Shown piece by piece: positions 11,972 through 23,103 of a stretch of 23,155 nt of DNA. The DNA lies in the UHGV virus genome UHGV-0138245, one strand, 5' to 3'. The position numbers were made by a program, and so were the translations under genes. Every line of letters starts with the position of its first letter. The first letter of the stretch is position 1. This stretch comes from a virus. The notes under the pieces were generated by a model, which was not told the origin of the DNA, did no database searches, and worked only from the letters and a program-made list of their open reading frames with translations.

Positions 11972-13017
11972 GCAAACGTAAAAACACCAAGCAGGTAACA
12001 GTTGATCACAACACAAAACCAGGCAACAGCCCAACGGCTGAGGCTTTCAGCTTTGGTGATCCCATTCCTGTACTGGACCGCCGCGAGCTGCTGGACTATG
12101 TGGAATGCGTACAAATGGATCGCTGGTATGAGCCGCCCGTCAGCTTTGACGGACTGGCGCGTACCTTCCGCGCCGCCGTGCACCACAGCTCCCCGATCAG
12201 TGTTAAGCGTGACATTATCAGCAGTACCTATATTCCACATCGCCTTCTCAGCCAGCAGGCATTTACCCGTTTTGTGCAGGACTATCTGGTTTTTGGTAAC
12301 GCCTACCTGGAGAAGCGCACGAACCGTTTCGGTGAAGTTATTTCGCTGGAGCCTGCACTGGCAAAATACACCCGGCGCGGGCTTGACCTTGAAACATACT
12401 GGTTTGTGCAATACAGCCTGACAACACAGCCGTATCAGTTCACAAAAGGTAACGTCTTCCACCTGATGGAGCCGGATATCAACCAGGAGATTTATGGTCT
12501 GCCGGGTTACCTTTCTGCCATTCCGTCAGCTCTGCTCAACGAGTCCGCCACGTTGTTCCGTCGTAAGTATTACATTAACGGCAGCCATGCAGGCTTCATC
12601 ATGTACATGACCGACGCCGCGCAGAACCAGGAGGATGTGAACAACATCCGCAAGGCAATGAAAAGTGCTAAAGGACCCGGCAACTTTCGCAACCTGTTTA
12701 TGTACTCGCCTAACGGCAAAAAAGATGGCATTCAGATTATCCCGTTGTCGGAAGTTGCGGCGAAGGATGAATTTCTGAACATCAAGAACGTCAGCCGCGA
12801 TGACATGATGGCGGCTCATCGCGTACCACCACAAATGATGGGCATCATTCCCAACAACACTGGCGGCTTTGGTGATGTGGAAAAAGCGAGCCGTGTCTTC
12901 GTTCGCAATGAACTGATGCCACTGCAAAAGCGACTGCAGGAGCTGAACGACTGGCTGGGTGAAGAAGTGATCCGTTTCGAAGCCTATGACTTAGGACTTA
13001 AGGGCAAACGAGGCTGA
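11968..13017 (+). CDS. Portal protein (P2 gpQ-like)
   Basis: Track ORF 11932..13017; the ATG at 11968 (MSKRKNTKQ...) gives 349 aa, close to P2 gpQ, and lies downstream of the terminase as in the P2 P-Q operon. Confidence 0.9.
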   Translation: MSKRKNTKQVTVDHNTKPGNSPTAEAFSFGDPIPVLDRRELLDYVECVQMDRWYEPPVSFDGLARTFRAAVHHSSPISVKRDIISSTYIPHRLLSQQAFTRFVQDYLVFGNAYLEKRTNRFGEVISLEPALAKYTRRGLDLETYWFVQYSLTTQPYQFTKGNVFHLMEPDINQEIYGLPGYLSAIPSALLNESATLFRRKYYINGSHAGFIMYMTDAAQNQEDVNNIRKAMKSAKGPGNFRNLFMYSPNGKKDGIQIIPLSEVAAKDEFLNIKNVSRDDMMAAHRVPPQMMGIIPNNTGGFGDVEKASRVFVRNELMPLQKRLQELNDWLGEEVIRFEAYDLGLKGKRG

Positions 13018-13054
13018 CATACTCATAACATCAATAACTGACCAACTCTCACAA

Positions 13055-13088
13055 CGCCTCAGCAGCATTCTGCGGGGCGTTTCTTTTT
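13055..13088 (+). terminator. Intrinsic terminator after the portal gene
   Basis: GC-rich hairpin CGCCTCAGCAG/CTGCGGGGCG (one bulge) followed by TTTCTTTTT. Confidence 0.55.
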
Positions 13089-13177
13089 GCCCTTACATCT
13101 CTCCCCCAACACCAAATGAGGCCGCCAGCGGGCCAAAGGCTGCGCCGGATTTTAGCCATTTCCCCCCGTTGCGCGCG

Positions 13178-13196
13178 CTCGTATCCCCGCCACGCC
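13178..13196 (-). other. Candidate cos (cohesive-end) site
   Basis: Reverse strand reads GGCGTGGCGGGGA..., matching the first 13 nt of the P2/186 19-nt cos as I remember it, about 160 bp past the portal stop (P2 cos is about 140 bp past Q). The cos sequence is recalled, not looked up. Confidence 0.4.
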
Positions 13197-13239
13197 TGCA
13201 CGCTTTATGTAGTGGTTTTCATGCACCTGCATGATCTAC

Positions 13240-13265
13240 GCAAAAGCCCGCCAGTTCTGGCGGGC
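13240..13265 (-). terminator. Intrinsic terminator downstream of the SOS operon
   Basis: Perfect 9-bp stem GCCCGCCAG/CTGGCGGGC followed on the - strand by a short T-run (TTTTG). Confidence 0.5.
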
Positions 13266-13400
13266 CTTAGCAAAAACGATCCTCAAACGATCATGCGATC
13301 TCATGCGGCATAGACATGCACTACAGAGCTAACGCCTCGCAAGGGCTCGTTGTTCAACCTTGCTGACGCCAGAAACAAGTTCAGACGCCAGCAACGTTTC

Positions 13401-13634
13401 TTAATGCAGCCAGCTGTCGTCTTCCCACACCTTCTGCATAATTTTCATCACTTGTTTTCTTTCTTCGTCCAGTTGCAGTCCGGTCAGTTCCACACCGTTA
13501 GAGCTACCTTTGCGGATACGAATTACCGTTTTGGGATACAGGGGGCGCAGATTGCGGTAAAGCTCGGATTCAAGGGCGTCCAGTGTAGACTGGCTAATCT
13601 TCTGCTCTTTATCGATCATTATTTCAATGCGCAT
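13401..13634 (-). CDS. dinI: DinI-family protein
   Basis: Internal ATG with AGGTGA Shine-Dalgarno; MRIEIMIDKEQKIS...LDALESELYRNLRPLYP...KQVMKIMQKVWEDDSW parallels E. coli DinI (MRIEVTIAK...WESADDW). Confidence 0.75.
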   Translation of the reverse strand: MRIEIMIDKEQKISQSTLDALESELYRNLRPLYPKTVIRIRKGSSNGVELTGLQLDEERKQVMKIMQKVWEDDSWLH

Positions 13635-13644
13635 AAAAGTCACC

Positions 13645-13833
13645 TCAGCTGATGACATCCATTGAGCGGTTGTATTCGTGGGTTCTGATTTTTGCCATGA
13701 GTTCATCTGTCAGTTCAGAAACCCACTGCAGGGCCAGCCCCTTCTCTTCATCACTACACTCACTAGCCGCTACAAGCTTAAGAAAAAAATCAATGCGCTG
13801 GAGCTTCAAAGACTCCAAAAAATAGTCCTGCAT
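13645..13833 (-). CDS. Small SOS-operon protein (possible Tum-like antirepressor N-terminal module)
   Basis: 62-aa ORF with GGAGGAAAG Shine-Dalgarno, directly downstream of a LexA box and overlapping the extended DinI frame. Function inferred from position only. Confidence 0.45.
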   Translation of the reverse strand: MQDYFLESLKLQRIDFFLKLVAASECSDEEKGLALQWVSELTDELMAKIRTHEYNRSMDVIS

Positions 13834-13873
13834 CTTTCCTCCTATGACACCAAAGCAATACTGTATACATAAC

Positions 13874-13893
13874 CACTGTTTATATTTACAGTA
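13874..13893 (-). promoter_or_regulatory. LexA (SOS) box and promoter for the small-ORF/DinI operon
   Basis: CACTGTTTATATTTACAGTA fits CTGT-N8-ACAG; a second half-site (TACTGTATACAT) lies at 13859..13870, just upstream of the operon RBS. Confidence 0.7.
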
Positions 13894-13985
13894 TATAATA
13901 ATCTTACTGATGTAAAACGTTTTTTTACGCTCATCAGCCTGATATGCCTGGTATTATTAAGAGCACGAATTGTTAACCCGCGTAA

Positions 13986-16400
13986 TTAATACAGGTTTCG
14001 CCACTTATCATCTTCCTGCAAACGCTGGTTCCGATAGAAGATACGCAGGCCTGCTCCTGACGGAATACTGCCACCGCGAAGGAGTAAATCTACCTCTTTC
14101 TCGCTGCCATCAAATCCTCTGGACTTCAGTTCATAGACGAGCTGCTGTCGTTGATGGTCTGTAATTCGCTGTTTGTAGTTTCTACGCCGTTTCGGTTTCA
14201 CCAGGCGTAACCTTGCAGCCAGTTCCCGGCGCTCTTTTTTGTTCATACTGTGCAGAAAATCGTGCAACTCCTTGTCATCCATGCGGGTAACATCCGTTCT
14301 GGTGTCCCCATCAGCTGATTTATCTTTCTCCTGTTGGTTCAAATTTTCAGCAAGGGGACAGTTATTGCCACGAGTCCAAGGGGCGCAAGCGCCCTGGTCG
14401 GCTGCCGCCTCCTGAACGTCAACGGCCTTACGAACCATTTTCCACTTCACTGCATGAGTACAGATCTTGCCCTCTGCAATGGGTGACCAGATGCCATAAA
14501 TACGAATGCCGTGATCGCCATAGGCGGTCGGCTCTTCGTTGATTTCATAAGCGGTTCTGATCAGGTGATATTTGCGGGGAACCAGTACGCCGCCCTGCTT
14601 CATGATGTAGGTGGCAAAACAACCAGCATCAGCAGCAGCCAGGATTGCATCAAGGCGCGGGTTATCCAGTACCGGCGCACCTGCTTTTTTGTCCCCCTGT
14701 TGCCTTGCCGCCTGACCAGCCAGCAATCGCAGTTCACGGTAAGCCTGACGCCCCGGAATGCCAAAGAAGCGGAATTGCTGAACACGATGCAGAGACGCCC
14801 AGGCATTAACGTATTCAGCATTATCACGCAGGGATTTCCCCGTTTCCTTGCTGATCTCGCCAGCCAGACCACGCCCGTCAATGTTCTTACTGATGTATTT
14901 CGCGATGTAGCTTGTTGGCGTACCTTTGCGCGGGTTAATCAACTCAGACTTAAAGCGCGGCCCAGTGTTATTGCCCAGCTCCTCGCGGTCTTCACGGATG
15001 GCAAACTTACGCAGTAATGCAGTGATGGCGCGGCGGTCTTTTTTGCGCATAAAACACAACAGGTGCCAGTGAACTGTACCGTCATGATGCGGCTCAGCCA
15101 CCCGCACGCCATACCAGCGCAATCCGGCTTTGTGCATCGCCTTACGAAATGCAGCAAACATGCCGACCAGGTAATCACTACTTTGTCTTACCGTCGCATT
15201 TGTCCAGGTTGGGTTGGGCCTGCCGTTATTTAGCGTGGAATGGAAACGTGACGGACAGGTGATGGTGTAGAAAACGGCGCAGTCACCGCGCATTTCCGCG
15301 ATAAGCTCCAGACCTTTAACACAGGCCATCATCTCATTGCGGCGATGCGCAGGGTTGCTGCTGCTGGCGTTTACCACATCCTCCATGTCCAGCGTGTCGC
15401 CGTCTTCGTTCACCAGTTCATGAGAACGGAAAAACTCCAGCGACTTACGGCGCTGCTCACGTTTATGCATCACGGCTTCATAGCTGACATAAGGAGATGC
15501 TTTTTTGCTGACCAGGCAGACAGCGCGCAACTGCTCTTCCCGCCATTCGCAACGCATCTTCCATAATTTCCGGTACCACCAGTCGGCGCACAACATACGC
15601 GCCAGCGAACCCGGAATGAGTTCATAGGGCACGGGTTTACGGCGGTTTCTTTTCCGACGGAGTTGCTCAAACGCAGGCGGGATAACATCCAGACGCAGGG
15701 TTTCCGCTGCCACCTTTTCCCATGTCTTGCGGATTTCTTCTGGCTTAACGTCATCGGTGGCATACAAATCACCACAAGCTGCATCAAGGCACATGCTCAT
15801 ATGCGCAGCGACAAGGGTAGACAGGCGCTTCACCTGATCCTGACTCATTTCAGGCAGGATAAGCAGGCCATCCAGCCCTTCATGGCTTGCCATAAAGCGA
15901 AAAGAAGCGGATAGCTGACTGTCGCGTACATGCTCCAGTCGTTCCAGACATGGCTTAATCGTCTCACGCAAATAGCGGGAATAAGCCTTTGGCCTGCCCA
16001 GGCTGCTGAAGTATTCAATACGTTGCATCAGCGGCTTGCTGATATGGGAAGGCTGGGCATTGACGTCCGCCAGAATGACCATATCTGGATTAAAACGCTG
16101 CTGCTCATGCGCCAGCTTTGCCCGACTAATGAGCTTATCCTGCTCCATTTCGCGCTGGACAGGATCACGGGATTCATTAAAGAAATAACGCTCCCAGACC
16201 TGATCACTCAGTACCTCGCGGCGCAGGTGTTCCTGCTCGTTATCGGCAGCGTACAGAGCGATCAGGTTTGAAAGCGTAGAAACCGGCGCAACTTCCGCCG
16301 GGTCCAGATAAGGGTTAATGGCCTTTTTCGGGCTGTTCCATGAGAACGATGCGGCAGCTTCGTTAAAGCCGCAGCAGTTGTTCATATCGGCATGACTCAT
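13986..16400 (-). CDS. A: Replication initiation protein (P2/186 gpA-like rolling-circle endonuclease)
   Basis: 804-aa ORF with HUH-type motif ([10 protein letters not shown]) and a paired-tyrosine motif (YIAKYISKN); start overlaps the dam stop (ATGA). Confidence 0.85.
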
Positions 16401-19181: not shown

Positions 19182-19192
19182 GGGGTTTGATT

Positions 19193-19825
19193 ATGAGTTT
19201 GATCAAGGCGGGAAATGATAGTGGTGGGCGCGATGCAATTAACAGGCTTATTAAGGCTTACAACTTCAGCTCACGACAGCAGCTCTGCGAACATCTGGAG
19301 GTATCCAAAAGCACTATGGCTAACAGATACTTAAGGGATAGCTTTCCTGCCGAATGGGTAATTCAATGTGCCCTTGAAACAGGAGTTTCCCTTCTATGGC
19401 TGGCTACTGGTCAAGGAGATATGTATGCGTGTGAGAACGAAGAAACAAATCTCAAAAATGAACCTCCCGTCACTGTAAGACCACTTTCTAAGATCGTTGC
19501 TCCTAGCATCAAACGTGTTGAACTGAAGAACGGCGAACTGCAGGCAAGTGATGAAATTCTTCTTGATAGCAGCCTGCTCGATGGTGACTCATCCAACGCT
19601 TTATTTGTTAAAACAGCTAATAATAGCTTTGTAGTGGATACGTCCGTTAAACAAGTCAGTAATGGCTTCTGGTTAGTCGATATGGACGGAGTTAAAAGCA
19701 TCGTCAAAATTGCGCGCATACCCGGAAACAAAATAGTAGTTAACCAAGATGACACTTCATTTGAATGTTCTGTAGATGATGTGGAAGTCGTAGGACGTGC
19801 AGTCAAAGTAATCAAGAACCTCTAA
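19193..19825 (+). CDS. cI: CI immunity repressor
   Basis: ATG at 19193 with AAGGGG Shine-Dalgarno (track ORF starts at a TTG six nt upstream); helix-turn-helix near the N-terminus; directly upstream of int and divergent from apl/cII, as in 186. Confidence 0.75.
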   Translation: MSLIKAGNDSGGRDAINRLIKAYNFSSRQQLCEHLEVSKSTMANRYLRDSFPAEWVIQCALETGVSLLWLATGQGDMYACENEETNLKNEPPVTVRPLSKIVAPSIKRVELKNGELQASDEILLDSSLLDGDSSNALFVKTANNSFVVDTSVKQVSNGFWLVDMDGVKSIVKIARIPGNKIVVNQDDTSFECSVDDVEVVGRAVKVIKNL

Positions 19826-19828
19826 CTT

Positions 19829-20845
19829 ATGACCATCAGAAAACAGCCGAACGGAAAATGGTTGTGTGAGTGCTATCCCAATGGACGCAATGGTAAGCGC
19901 GTGCGTAAGCAATTTGCTACCAAAGGCGAAGCCATTGCATTTGAAAGCTTCACCATGGACGAAGTAAACAAAAAGCCATGGCTTGGTGAGAAGGAAGATC
20001 GGCGGCGATTATCAGAAGTGATTGAGCAGTGGTATTCCCTATATGGTCAAACACTCGCAGACCCCAAACGCCTGATGGCGAAACTTAGAATTATCTGTAA
20101 TGGTCTAGGCGATCCCATCGCCTCTGAGCTGACAGCAGGTGATTTCACAAAATATCGGGAAGCCAGATTAAAGGGGGAGGTCCAAAATGAAGACGGCTCG
20201 TTCATGTCACCCGTTAAACCTCGCACAGTTAATCTTGAGCAGCGTAACCTGTCATCGGTGTTCGGTACATTGAAAAAACTAGGGCACTGGTCCGCACCAA
20301 ACCCGCTGGCAGGGCTTCCAACCTTCAAAATTGCTGAAGGTGAATTGGCTTTTCTTTCCACGGACGAAATCAAACGCCTGCTTAATGCCTGCGCCGAATC
20401 TCAAAACACCAGCCTACTAATGATTGCAAAAATATGCCTGGCTACTGGTGCGCGATGGAGTGAAGCAGAAAACTTGCAGGGCCATCAGTTATCAAAATAC
20501 CGGATCACCTATACCAAGACAAAAGGTAAGAAAAATCGTACCGTGCCGATATCTCAAAATCTGTATGATGAACTCCCCAAGAACAGAGGGAAACTATTCA
20601 CACCGTGCAGAAAAGCCTTTGAACGAGCAGTAAAGCGAGCAGGCATCGAGCTACCAGAGGGCCAATGCACCCACGTGCTGCGTCATACATTCGCCAGTCA
20701 TTTTATGATGAATGGCGGGAATATTCTTGTCCTTAAAGAAATATTGGGCCATGCCGATATAAAAATGACGATGGTTTACGCACACTTTTCTCCAGACCAT
20801 CTAGAAGATGCTGTTACAAAAAATCCTTTACATAATTTGGTTTAA
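19829..20845 (+). CDS. int: Tyrosine integrase (P2/186 Int family)
   Basis: 338-aa ORF with the catalytic signature (ATGARWSE; HVLRHTFAS H-x-x-R; MVYAHF catalytic Tyr). Confidence 0.9.
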   Translation: MTIRKQPNGKWLCECYPNGRNGKRVRKQFATKGEAIAFESFTMDEVNKKPWLGEKEDRRRLSEVIEQWYSLYGQTLADPKRLMAKLRIICNGLGDPIASELTAGDFTKYREARLKGEVQNEDGSFMSPVKPRTVNLEQRNLSSVFGTLKKLGHWSAPNPLAGLPTFKIAEGELAFLSTDEIKRLLNACAESQNTSLLMIAKICLATGARWSEAENLQGHQLSKYRITYTKTKGKKNRTVPISQNLYDELPKNRGKLFTPCRKAFERAVKRAGIELPEGQCTHVLRHTFASHFMMNGGNILVLKEILGHADIKMTMVYAHFSPDHLEDAVTKNPLHNLV

Positions 20846-20849
20846 TAGA

Positions 20850-21908
20850 ATGAAAAAAAAGCTCACATTAATCATTACCTACGCAATCATTACTATCTTA
20901 ATTGCCTTAGCATTGATATACACTAATCGTCCAAGAGTTTTTATCTTCTTTAGTGTAGCTTATATACTTGGATTGATACTTATGTTCTATTGCTTCAATT
21001 GGCTTAAACTAAATGAGAAAAATCTATTAAAACAACCATTATTCATAGCATCTATTATCGTACCGTTAAAAATGTTTGTTTTGTATGGCCTCTGGGCTTG
21101 GAAAGGCCACAATTTAAATTTCACATCAGACGGTTTTAATCACTTTCTTGACATCTCTAAATTGCCATTATTTATTTTAGCTTCTTCGGTACCTCTTGCA
21201 GCAATCGTCAACAATATACATAGAACCACACAAACAGAGAACCAAATAGAAAAAACACAAAAGCAAATCAATCTTGTTATTGAAAAAAACACCACTGATT
21301 CATATTACTCACATCTGAAAAGCTTCGCTGATATATTCCAAACACTACCAACATTTAAATTATCAAGATTAAATAAAGAAACTAGTGATATAGACAGTAT
21401 TGAACTATCTGTAGTTCATCCGTACACTCTTTATAAAAATATTTTCAAATCATCTTCCATTGATAATGGCTATAGCACCGCTGTCGAAGAAGATTTTATT
21501 CGAAAAACAACAAATCATTATAACAACATAAACAAATCGCTTAAGTCCAACAACAAAAATCATGACAACCAATTAGTTAGCCTACAACTCATAGAATCAA
21601 ACATAATTCAACTTTGCAGACTACTTGGAATTGATTATAAATACCAAGAACATCTTTTCTCAATAATTCCTGAACATCCAAAACCAGATACGGAAGCCAT
21701 AAGCATCTCATTCAATGATGAAAAACAACTAAAGCAAATGCTTTGGGGACTAAGAAATATTCTCATTGAGTTATATGTTTTAATCGACAAGGACCCCTCT
21801 ATCTTCCAAACAGGTAAAAGCAATGGTGATTACATACCTGAGTACGCACTATATGACGAAAAACTCTTTACAAGCATTTTACCTATATCAAATGACCAGC
21901 GCATTTAA
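20850..21908 (+). CDS. AT-rich membrane protein of unknown function (cargo gene between int and att)
   Basis: Real start MKKKLTLIITY... 5 nt after the int stop; four predicted N-terminal transmembrane helices then a ~230-aa Lys/Asn-rich soluble domain; ~28% GC against ~45-55% for its neighbours. Confidence 0.7.
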   Translation: MKKKLTLIITYAIITILIALALIYTNRPRVFIFFSVAYILGLILMFYCFNWLKLNEKNLLKQPLFIASIIVPLKMFVLYGLWAWKGHNLNFTSDGFNHFLDISKLPLFILASSVPLAAIVNNIHRTTQTENQIEKTQKQINLVIEKNTTDSYYSHLKSFADIFQTLPTFKLSRLNKETSDIDSIELSVVHPYTLYKNIFKSSSIDNGYSTAVEEDFIRKTTNHYNNINKSLKSNNKNHDNQLVSLQLIESNIIQLCRLLGIDYKYQEHLFSIIPEHPKPDTEAISISFNDEKQLKQMLWGLRNILIELYVLIDKDPSIFQTGKSNGDYIPEYALYDEKLFTSILPISNDQRI

Positions 21909-22021
21909 TGGCGACAAAGTGGCGGCAGAGCATTAAAAACGCATAAAACATATAAACAGTAAATAACACTAAAGGACTGTTTTTAAACGTAATTCACTGT
22001 TTTTATTACAGTAAAAATAGT

Positions 22022-22066
22022 ATGTAGGAATTTCGGACGCGGGTTCAACTCCCGCCAGCTCCACCA
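22022..22066 (+). other. ssrA: att core: 3'-terminal 45 nt of ssrA (tmRNA), fragment only
   Basis: ATGTAGGAATTTCGGACGCGGGTTCAACTCCCGCCAGCTCCACCA matches the E. coli tmRNA 3' end (T-arm, acceptor, CCA) as I remember it; no 5' acceptor strand or tmRNA body upstream. Confidence 0.8.
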
Positions 22067-22112: not shown

Positions 22113-22146
22113 AGCCCGCACGGCGCAAGCCCTGCGGGCTTTTTTG
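22113..22146 (+). terminator. Intrinsic terminator downstream of the ssrA 3' end
   Basis: 8-bp stem AGCCCGCA/TGCGGGCT followed by TTTTTT. Confidence 0.6.
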
Positions 22147-22269
22147 TGCCCTCAATTTGTCCCGCGAAGTCCGAAGAGAACTGATTAAATCCGAACCTTT
22201 TAGGCCCATTGATAGGCCCAACGAAAAGCTCTATTGTTTTCGTTGGGCCTAAACGCATGGAGACTCCCC

Positions 22270-23103
22270 ATGGCAAGAAAAACCAAGCCGTTAACCGATA
22301 CGGAAATCAAAGCCGCCAAACCTAAAGATGCCGATTACCAGCTGTATGATGGTGACGGGCTTACTCTGTTAATCAAGTCCAGCGGTAGTAAGCTCTGGCA
22401 GTTCCGTTACTATCGACCTCTGACCAAGCAGCGAACCAAGCAGAGCTTCGGAGCCTACCCAGCCGTCTCCCTTTCTGATGCGCGTAAACTCAGAGCTGAA
22501 TCTCGAGTTTTGTTGGCAAAAGATATTGATCCTCAGGAACACCAGAAAGAACAGGTGAGGAATTCTCAAGAGGCCAAAACCAACACCTTCTTGTTAGTTG
22601 CCGAGCGTTGGTGGAATGTGAAGAAAGCCAGCGTAACAGAGGACTATGCCGACGATATCTGGCGCTCGCTTGAGAGAGATGTTTTCCCAGCAATCGGTGA
22701 TATCAGCGTCACTGAGATTAAGGCTCATACTCTAGTTAAAGCTGTTCAGCCGGTACAGGCCAGAGGTGCATTAGAGACTGTTCGCCGCCTTTGTCAGCGT
22801 ATTAACGAAGTCATGATTTATGCGCAGAACACAGGCCTGATTGATGCAGTTCCCAGTGTAAATATCGGAAAAGCGTTCGAGAAACCGCAAAAGAAAAACA
22901 TGCCGAGTATCCGTCCGGATCAGCTTCCACAGTTAATGCAAACAATGCGTACAGCAAGTATCAGTATGTCAACGCGGTGCTTGTTCATGTGGCAGCTTCT
23001 CACCATTACCCGCCCTGCCGAAGCCGCTGAGGCACGATGGGATGAAATCGATTTCAGTGCTAAAGAATGGAAAATTCCAGCAGCTCGTATGAAGATGAAC
23101 TGA
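22270..23103 (+). CDS. intA: P4/CP4-57-type tyrosine integrase (IntA-like), C-terminally truncated; probable pseudogene
   Basis: MARKTKPLTDTEIKAAKPKDADYQLYDGDGLTLLIKSSGSKLWQFRYY... N-terminus about 200 bp after the ssrA end. The ORF stops after ...IPAARMKMN (278 aa), before the H-x-x-R and catalytic Tyr motifs. Confidence 0.75.
   Translation: MARKTKPLTDTEIKAAKPKDADYQLYDGDGLTLLIKSSGSKLWQFRYYRPLTKQRTKQSFGAYPAVSLSDARKLRAESRVLLAKDIDPQEHQKEQVRNSQEAKTNTFLLVAERWWNVKKASVTEDYADDIWRSLERDVFPAIGDISVTEIKAHTLVKAVQPVQARGALETVRRLCQRINEVMIYAQNTGLIDAVPSVNIGKAFEKPQKKNMPSIRPDQLPQLMQTMRTASISMSTRCLFMWQLLTITRPAEAAEARWDEIDFSAKEWKIPAARMKMN

Follow-up and report, generated by a model that had tools for sequence, protein, structure and literature searches.

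What does the AT-rich gene between the integrase gene and the attachment core of a Fels-2-like prophage encode, and what might it do in the lysogen? The DNA analyzed here, a stretch of 23,155 nucleotides that we call the window, comprises the right part of a P2-family prophage (Fels-2-like, 186-type) integrated at ssrA. Its minus-strand prophage genes encode tail and head proteins, terminase, portal, GpA (13986–16400), a Dam methylase, TraR, DUF2732 and DUF5347 proteins, and include fil, cII, and apl. On the plus strand, cI (19187–19825) encodes a 186-type CI immunity repressor (PF07022, E = 3.9e-33; PF16452, E = 5.1e-40) and is the first gene of the lysogenic-side operon; it is followed by int (19829–20845), encoding a tyrosine integrase of the P2/186 type (PF24624 and PF00589). 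The 186-type CI, the P2-type Int, the opposite-strand apl–cII–fil genes, GpA, and integration at the 3' end of ssrA place the prophage in the Fels-2/186-type group of the P2 family, and Fels-2 itself is the closest named phage, with 85.5% nucleotide identity over the cI–int segment (19187–20845). The interval between the portal gene (GpQ) and GpA, the canonical P2 defense hotspot, is almost empty in this prophage: its approximately 970 bp (13017–13986) hold two small minus-strand open reading frames only (13401–13706, 101 aa, and 13645–13833, 62 aa), with no PADLOC match.

The gene of interest is an open reading frame of 352 codons plus stop on the plus strand (20850–21908), and its product falls in PHROG 17460, a membrane-protein family without a name or an assigned function. 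The original prediction described a 352-residue frame starting 5 nt past the int stop, on the cI–int strand and between int and the att core, and all of this is borne out: the int stop codon TAA occupies 20843–20845 and the ATG lies at 20850, a measured gap of 4 nt that is equivalent, and Rfam places the 3' end of ssrA downstream. A longer alternative frame beginning at ATG 20808 would overlap int; RefSeq entry WP_001748162.1 adopts the 352-residue start. The GC content had been put at about 28% by eye, a figure that proved slightly low, while the contrast with the surroundings holds: the frame has 31.7% GC (GC3 29.7%) versus 46.0% in int, 42.9% in cI, and 51.8% across the whole window. The frame is not a product of chance, since the probability of 352 stop-free codons at its base composition is about 5e-12 and its dN/dS against homologs of 73–76% identity is 0.12–0.13; by the latter measure the gene is under purifying selection.

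Comparison with Fels-2 delimits the insert. By blastn, positions 20600–20823 and 21903–22045 of the window align with the end of Fels-2, and the intervening stretch is unaligned, defining a plus-strand cassette (20824–21902) that lacks a Fels-2 counterpart; int and the P-arm are shared with Fels-2, where int and attP are separated by 118 bp that hold no gene. The last seven or so int codons fall within the swapped cassette, as int homology to Fels-2 stops at about 20823. Given that the match runs to about 20823 and resumes at about 21903, the insert is essentially the open reading frame alone, and by this alignment the gene is a precise, exchangeable cassette. The earlier suggestion that it is acquired cargo is thus supported by an ORF-sized stretch absent from an otherwise matching Fels-2 end.

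Immediately 3' of the stop codon, where the conserved att arm begins, a direct repeat TGGCGACA/TGGCGGCA with a spacing of 11 bp (TGGCGACA-N3-TGGCGGCA; 21909–21927, plus strand) can be read from the sequence. In all related loci that were inspected (L001, L009, and L013), the sequence past the cargo stop resumes with this repeat, whatever the cargo, and Fels-2 has it too. It probably comprises sites for recombination proteins (Int-arm or Apl) and probably marks the right recombination boundary of the cassette. The att core, which is the 3' end of ssrA (tmRNA) and forms the right end of the prophage, attR, lies at 22026–22066 on the plus strand (Rfam RF00023, E = 1.5e-16, 5'-truncated), and this fragment matches the annotated attP half-site of Fels-2. 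ARAGORN detected no tmRNA in the window, only the 3' fragment of the tmRNA gene being present. The scan for terminator-like sites places the intrinsic terminator of ssrA at 22127–22150 on the plus strand, and beyond it lies a P4-type integrase gene, intA (22270 onward). The intA-like frame stops at 23103, the point at which intA homology across E. coli genomes also ends, and the final 52 bases of the window match a multicopy sequence of chromosomes and plasmids, with as many as 16 sites in one genome. An insertion element therefore seems to interrupt intA.

Turning to the encoded protein, hydropathy analysis gives four segments, at approximately residues 5–24, 29–50, 62–84, and 102–122. An AlphaFold2 model built from a 31-sequence alignment (pLDDT 80) places helices at residues 2–24, 28–48, and 63–84, followed by one continuous helix at residues 95–163, in which TM4 extends into a stalk of about 40 residues, and then by an alpha/beta and helical domain. 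Modeled alone, the C-terminal domain reached a pLDDT of 87.8 and a pTM of 0.86. On this basis the protein can be divided into four parts, all encoded on the plus strand: an accessory hairpin of TM1 and TM2 (residues ~5–24 and ~29–48/50; 20862–20993), delimited by the hydropathy segments and the AlphaFold2 helices; a core hairpin of TM3, loop, and TM4 (residues ~63–122; 21036–21215), conserved in the family alignments; a juxtamembrane stalk helix (residues 123–163; 21216–21338), defined by the model and by conservation, which carries the family signature; and a variable, predicted cytoplasmic C-terminal domain (21339–21905), an alpha/beta fold with a helical bundle and without a fold match. The soluble domain spans about 190–230 aa. 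Regional dN/dS values follow this division, at 0.04–0.05 for residues 51–160 and 0.13–0.19 for the C-terminal domain.

The orientation of the protein was assessed from charge. Averaged over 122 family members, the region before TM3 carries 2.66 K+R and 1.84 D+E, the TM3–TM4 loop 1.46 K+R and 2.39 D+E, and the region after TM4 1.99 K+R and 1.41 D+E. With a net acidic loop between basic flanks, the positive-inside rule would place the loop in the periplasm and the stalk and C-terminal domain in the cytoplasm; the cytoplasmic location is predicted by that rule only.

The protein belongs to a large family. A word-indexed search found 52 clusters, all annotated as hypothetical and all from Enterobacterales, and an HMM search of 1.84 billion representatives (clusters at 50% identity) returned 930 representatives with E ≤ 1e-3, 453 with E ≤ 1e-10, and 171 with E ≤ 1e-30, so that the family comprises at least 930 clusters. 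Four hydrophobic segments are not the rule, since two or three are present in most members; of the 122 aligned sequences, 14 cover TM1 and 99 cover TM2, and the TM1–TM2 hairpin is, by these counts, absent wholly or partly from most of the family. Conserved residues of the core are L59, Q62, F65, P72, W84, G95, F99, K104, P106, L110, and P115. Within the stalk, H124 and Q128 are invariant, and R125, T126, T129, Q132, I133, K146, N147, D150, H155, and K157 are conserved in at least 90% of members, giving the signature NIHRTxQTxxQI…KNxxD…H.K, for which we use the provisional name 'HRTxQT stalk' membrane proteins. The conservation is biased toward one face of the stalk helix, as only 1.7% of permutations reach the observed moment. 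The protein under study has the full set of family features: the P106/P115 hairpin, H124, Q128, K146-N147-x-x-D150, H155-x-K157, and a variable C-terminal domain. Its subfamily carries a seven-residue insertion in the stalk relative to most of the family (residues ~136–142; 21255–21275), which corresponds to about two helical turns and so roughly keeps the helical register. Past residue ~165 the only conserved positions are L194 and Y195, identity between subfamilies falls to 15–20% in the C-terminal domain, and the 122-member alignment revealed no catalytic-looking conserved residues there.

Searches with the protein against Pfam, NCBIfam, and PADLOC yielded nothing useful, and a match to the NCBIfam model RoaM is noise (16.7 bits against a cut-off of 400). 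The PHROG scan returned 17460 (unknown function, E = 6e-49) and one noise match, and the annotated superinfection-exclusion PHROGs (Sie, Imm, Ltp, and similar) gave no match. Across the 122 diverse members no Pfam or PADLOC model matched consistently, the hits being scattered among TM-biased models. Weak matches to the 2TM, PycTM, and KwaA models look compositional: each involves one or two of the 122 members, falls on hydrophobic segments, and is not reproducible across the family. Neither a sequence-profile search of the PDB nor a Foldseek search of BFVD found anything, and neither a known transferase fold nor enzyme-like conserved residues were found. Hydropathy, the structural model, and the Pfam, NCBIfam, PADLOC, and PHROG searches therefore agree with the original prediction of four N-terminal transmembrane helices followed by a soluble domain without a recognizable motif, and the profile and structure searches likewise leave this description standing. 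By tblastn, one partial match was obtained in the plasmid collection and four partial matches in the phage collection, and a literature search on WP_001748162 and phrog_17460 retrieved no papers.

One family member, UniRef100_A0AB35PWB9 from Klebsiella michiganensis (P0217), bears the UniRef name 'Phage abortive infection protein', although Pfam gives no hit for it and NCBI lists it as hypothetical. Because of this label, homology to AbiC was examined, using the AbiC-like gene of plasmid p275A (putAbiC match at 1.6e-7, as positive control) together with 22 relatives. A single-sequence hhalign comparison had suggested a relationship in the TM2/stalk region, which was rejected on the basis of a profile–profile probability of 1.2%; the putAbiC HMM (PF16872) matched none of the 122 members, nor the entry labeled 'abortive infection'. 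Altogether, the Pfam, NCBIfam, PADLOC, and PHROG searches found no homology to any known defense protein.

The genomic context of relatives provides the strongest evidence on function. We sampled 77 related loci from IMG/VR and GTDB genomes and found the family gene directly 3' of a Fels-2/186-type int in 68 of them; a search of the genome collection with one family alignment had returned 5 loci only. In those 68 loci int is mostly 90–95% identical to that of the window, while the cargo is usually only 30–49% identical, a combination that amounts to the exchange of alleles at a fixed site. That site is also occupied by the most distant of the members tested, from Klebsiella (25% identity in the alignment). 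Among complete E. coli genomes, the same allele fills the int–att slot in six records from four strains, and other occupants are an allele of 82% nucleotide identity, a 309-aa family member with two transmembrane helices, an unrelated protein with three, and GapS1, a published anti-phage protein (bioRxiv 10.1101/2023.03.28.534373). The slot thus behaves as a P2-family hotspot, being empty in Fels-2 and filled by other genes, GapS1 included, in sister prophages. The occupant in E. coli LR14 (L097, 3257–3925) is an unrelated protein of 222 aa, a further membrane protein encoded as cargo, which has three hydrophobic segments and lacks a meaningful PADLOC hit. The decayed prophage of E. coli BE2-5 (L098) has pseudogenes for D, lysozyme, and cII, and retains apl, cI, int, and the 352-aa frame intact; four further strains (H9–H12) have the same megablast coverage and identity as BE2-5, a comparison made at the level of the match only.

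The description of the int–att interval as a typical moron slot stands only in part. A 2026 survey lists int–att as a minor defense hotspot of P2-like phages, with 3% of systems (int–GpA has 8%), but cargo between int and att is called atypical in general; in the P4 hotspot, six of eight unknown genes proved protective (PMC13586616).

Relatives also occur at other sites. In two IMG/VR prophages (L088 and L089), the family gene lies between portal/ogr and GpA, that is, in the GpQ–GpA tin/old hotspot, and one of these (L089, 5851–7991) carries two tandem paralogs there. The GpQ–GpA locus houses tin, old, and the PD systems, and many validated defense systems (PMC9519451; PMC9122126). In the other prophage (L088, 3759–7047), the family gene stands beside opposite-strand genes for TM/coiled-coil proteins of 313 and 248 aa. 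In prophages of Serratia marcescens (L103, 8001–8978) and Dickeya zeae (L104, 8001–9095), the insertion site of the family gene is not 3' of int but the cI–int interval, and further members lie in ICE-like or other variable regions (Dickeya and Pseudomonas). In Klebsiella aerogenes prophages (L002–L005, 7184–8377), a 33%-identical family gene is followed within the slot by a 397-aa gene without transmembrane segments or a Pfam or PADLOC match, which might encode a partner or be additional cargo. On a Klebsiella metagenome contig (L010, 7419–13065), a P4-like satellite adjoins the prophage att and encodes a Hachiman-type pair (a HamA/Cap4-nuclease protein and a helicase) between its integrase and ogr/delta.

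Would the gene be expressed in a lysogen? No terminator-like site was found from cI to the ssrA terminator, and no promoter-like site between int and the cargo frame. The start codon of the cargo gene and the stop codon of int overlap in homologous loci. Leftward (lysogenic-side) transcription of phage 186 has been measured with an int::lacZ fusion (PMC7708051). The Serratia and Dickeya genes that lie between cI and int must be transcribed there if the cI promoter reads int. Taken together, these features make co-transcription of the cargo gene with cI and int likely. H-NS can silence immunity genes that are AT-rich (bioRxiv 10.64898/2026.09.05.749240), so expression of the cargo in the lysogen is not assured.

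We propose that the gene is lysogen-expressed, single-protein anti-phage cargo, the likeliest of the readings considered here and one that we regard as evenly balanced between right and wrong. The product is an inner-membrane protein in which an extra hairpin, a conserved transmembrane hairpin, and a polar stalk precede a C-terminal domain that diverges fast and is predicted to be cytoplasmic; the lysogen would make it from the cI–int transcript. The variable cytoplasmic domain would recognize a phage component or an infection cue, upon which the hairpin and stalk would depolarize or permeabilize the membrane, aborting the infection and protecting the lysogen from other phages. An invariant hairpin and stalk coupled to a fast-diverging C-terminal domain without catalytic residues fits a recognition domain joined to a membrane effector, in the manner of RexAB and within one chain; the sensor/effector division is drawn by analogy. 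Transcription from pL, a role against phages, and the division into sensor and effector are inferences. The comparative context makes the superinfection-exclusion or abortive-infection role given in the original prediction more likely, and that role is still something we infer. Residence in a hotspot amounts to guilt by association; non-defense morons are carried there as well.

Three rival readings were weighed, the main one being superinfection exclusion. P22 SieA, T4 Imm, HK97 gp15, and lactococcal Sie2009 block the entry of incoming phage genomes, and a membrane protein encoded in the lysogeny module could likewise act by superinfection exclusion at the inner membrane, blocking genome entry without killing, for example by occupying or altering a host DNA-translocation component. 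The repressor–int interval, which the gene occupies in some prophages, is the classic place of sie2009 and ltp in Gram-positive prophages, and the conserved transmembrane hairpin with its short periplasmic loop (G95 and F99) could contact a conserved host factor. However, very few residues (about 4 and 19) are predicted to be exposed in the periplasm, and these are conserved, the large variable domain is predicted to lie in the cytoplasm, out of reach of an incoming tail or tape measure, and the PHROG scan found only 17460 and no annotated exclusion family. With almost nothing variable exposed to the periplasm, exclusion is disfavored, and we consider it unlikely. The gene might instead confer a fitness advantage unrelated to defense, as a lysogenic-conversion factor for envelope stress, transport, or toxin or bacteriocin immunity; in other phage groups, low-GC membrane genes next to int–att frequently serve conversion, O-antigen modification being one example, defense homology is absent by PADLOC, and the unrelated protein with three transmembrane helices fills the slot in another strain. 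Such a role sits poorly with the lack of enzyme-like conserved residues or known transferase folds, with the 2–4 transmembrane helices, unlike Gtr or Oac proteins, and with recurrence of the family in the tin/old hotspot and alongside known defense cargo; an arms race accounts better than housekeeping conversion for alleles so extremely diverse next to an int that is nearly identical. We therefore think conversion rather improbable.

A role in the cycle of the prophage itself—in integration or excision, maintenance of lysogeny, timing of lysis, or as an addiction-type toxin—would explain the tight linkage and probable translational coupling to int and the direct abutment of the gene on the att arm repeats. 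It would not explain why Fels-2 and many relatives lack the gene or carry an unrelated replacement, nor why members lie far from int, in the GpQ–GpA locus and in ICE-like islands, and no conserved antitoxin-like partner was seen; we hold such a role to be very improbable.

Returning to the anti-phage reading, a more ambitious version of it would make this gene the founding example of a widespread single-protein immune family: a novel-fold, hypervariable sensor that signals through a stalk to a hairpin collapsing membrane integrity, a one-chain equivalent of RexAB, and the most common int–att occupant in the sampled Fels-2-like loci of Enterobacterales, with members in the tin/old hotspot as well. 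We offer this version tentatively and regard it as doubtful. On the comparative evidence from sequence, the cargo gene is a good candidate, though an unproven one, for a new family of single-protein phage defenses. If the family is defensive, at least 930 clusters (50% identity) unseen by PADLOC, Pfam, and NCBIfam would be added to the anti-phage catalog, and the commonest occupant of a little-studied slot in E. coli, Klebsiella, Salmonella, Citrobacter, and Enterobacter would gain a function. It would also provide a compact model for a membrane effector coupled to a fast-evolving cytoplasmic recognition domain. Prophage cargo of this kind shapes the phage susceptibility of clinical Enterobacterales.

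How does the protein compare with known systems? The slot and the logic are already known; the protein family is unnamed and without a fold match. A transmembrane hairpin with a helical extension is shared with the two-TM (SLATT-like) effectors of CBASS and Pycsar and with KwaA of Kiwa, and a few family members gave weak PADLOC matches to 2-TM or KwaA models (best 4.4e-5 to 8e-5; a slot variant matched PDLC00691 at 8e-5). Membership in CBASS or Pycsar was not found, with one or two of the 122 members matching any one model at E up to 1, no Pfam SLATT match, and no cyclase nearby; the same holds for Kiwa, for which three KwaA models each matched one of the 122 members at E ≥ 0.0037 and no KwaB (DUF4868) is adjacent. 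The protein resembles Sie2009, Ltp, and P22 SieA as a membrane protein of a small-operon lysogeny module, in the repressor–int position in some relatives, and differs from them in its large variable domain, predicted to be cytoplasmic, and in having no similarity to an annotated PHROG.

Other parallels are found among abortive-infection and hotspot proteins. The lactococcal AbiC/AbiP group (putAbiC, PF16872) likewise comprises single genes of about 340 aa with very low GC and an N-terminal transmembrane anchor, which in AbiC and AbiP has two helices or one and precedes an extramembrane domain without a fold assignment (PMC13064643); the present family shows no homology to it by HMM (0 of 122) or by profile comparison (1.2%). 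The P2-family hotspot cargo, comprising tin, old, fun, the PD systems, and GapS1, has in common with it the int–att, int–GpA, and GpQ–GpA loci, sharp boundaries, low GC, and many alleles. Those systems are experimentally validated, whereas this family is a candidate and has no domains in common with them. Finally, lambda RexA/RexB, which bring about abortive infection from the immunity operon, are not matched by the protein in Pfam at E up to 1, and there is no second gene between int and att; the cargo protein is one polypeptide rather than two, with a core two-TM hairpin and stalk in place of a four-TM channel protein. What the two have in common is the position on the repressor transcript, probable for the cargo gene, the pairing of a four-helix inner-membrane module with a cytoplasmic one, and the proposed passage of a signal from a cytoplasmic sensor to a membrane effector.
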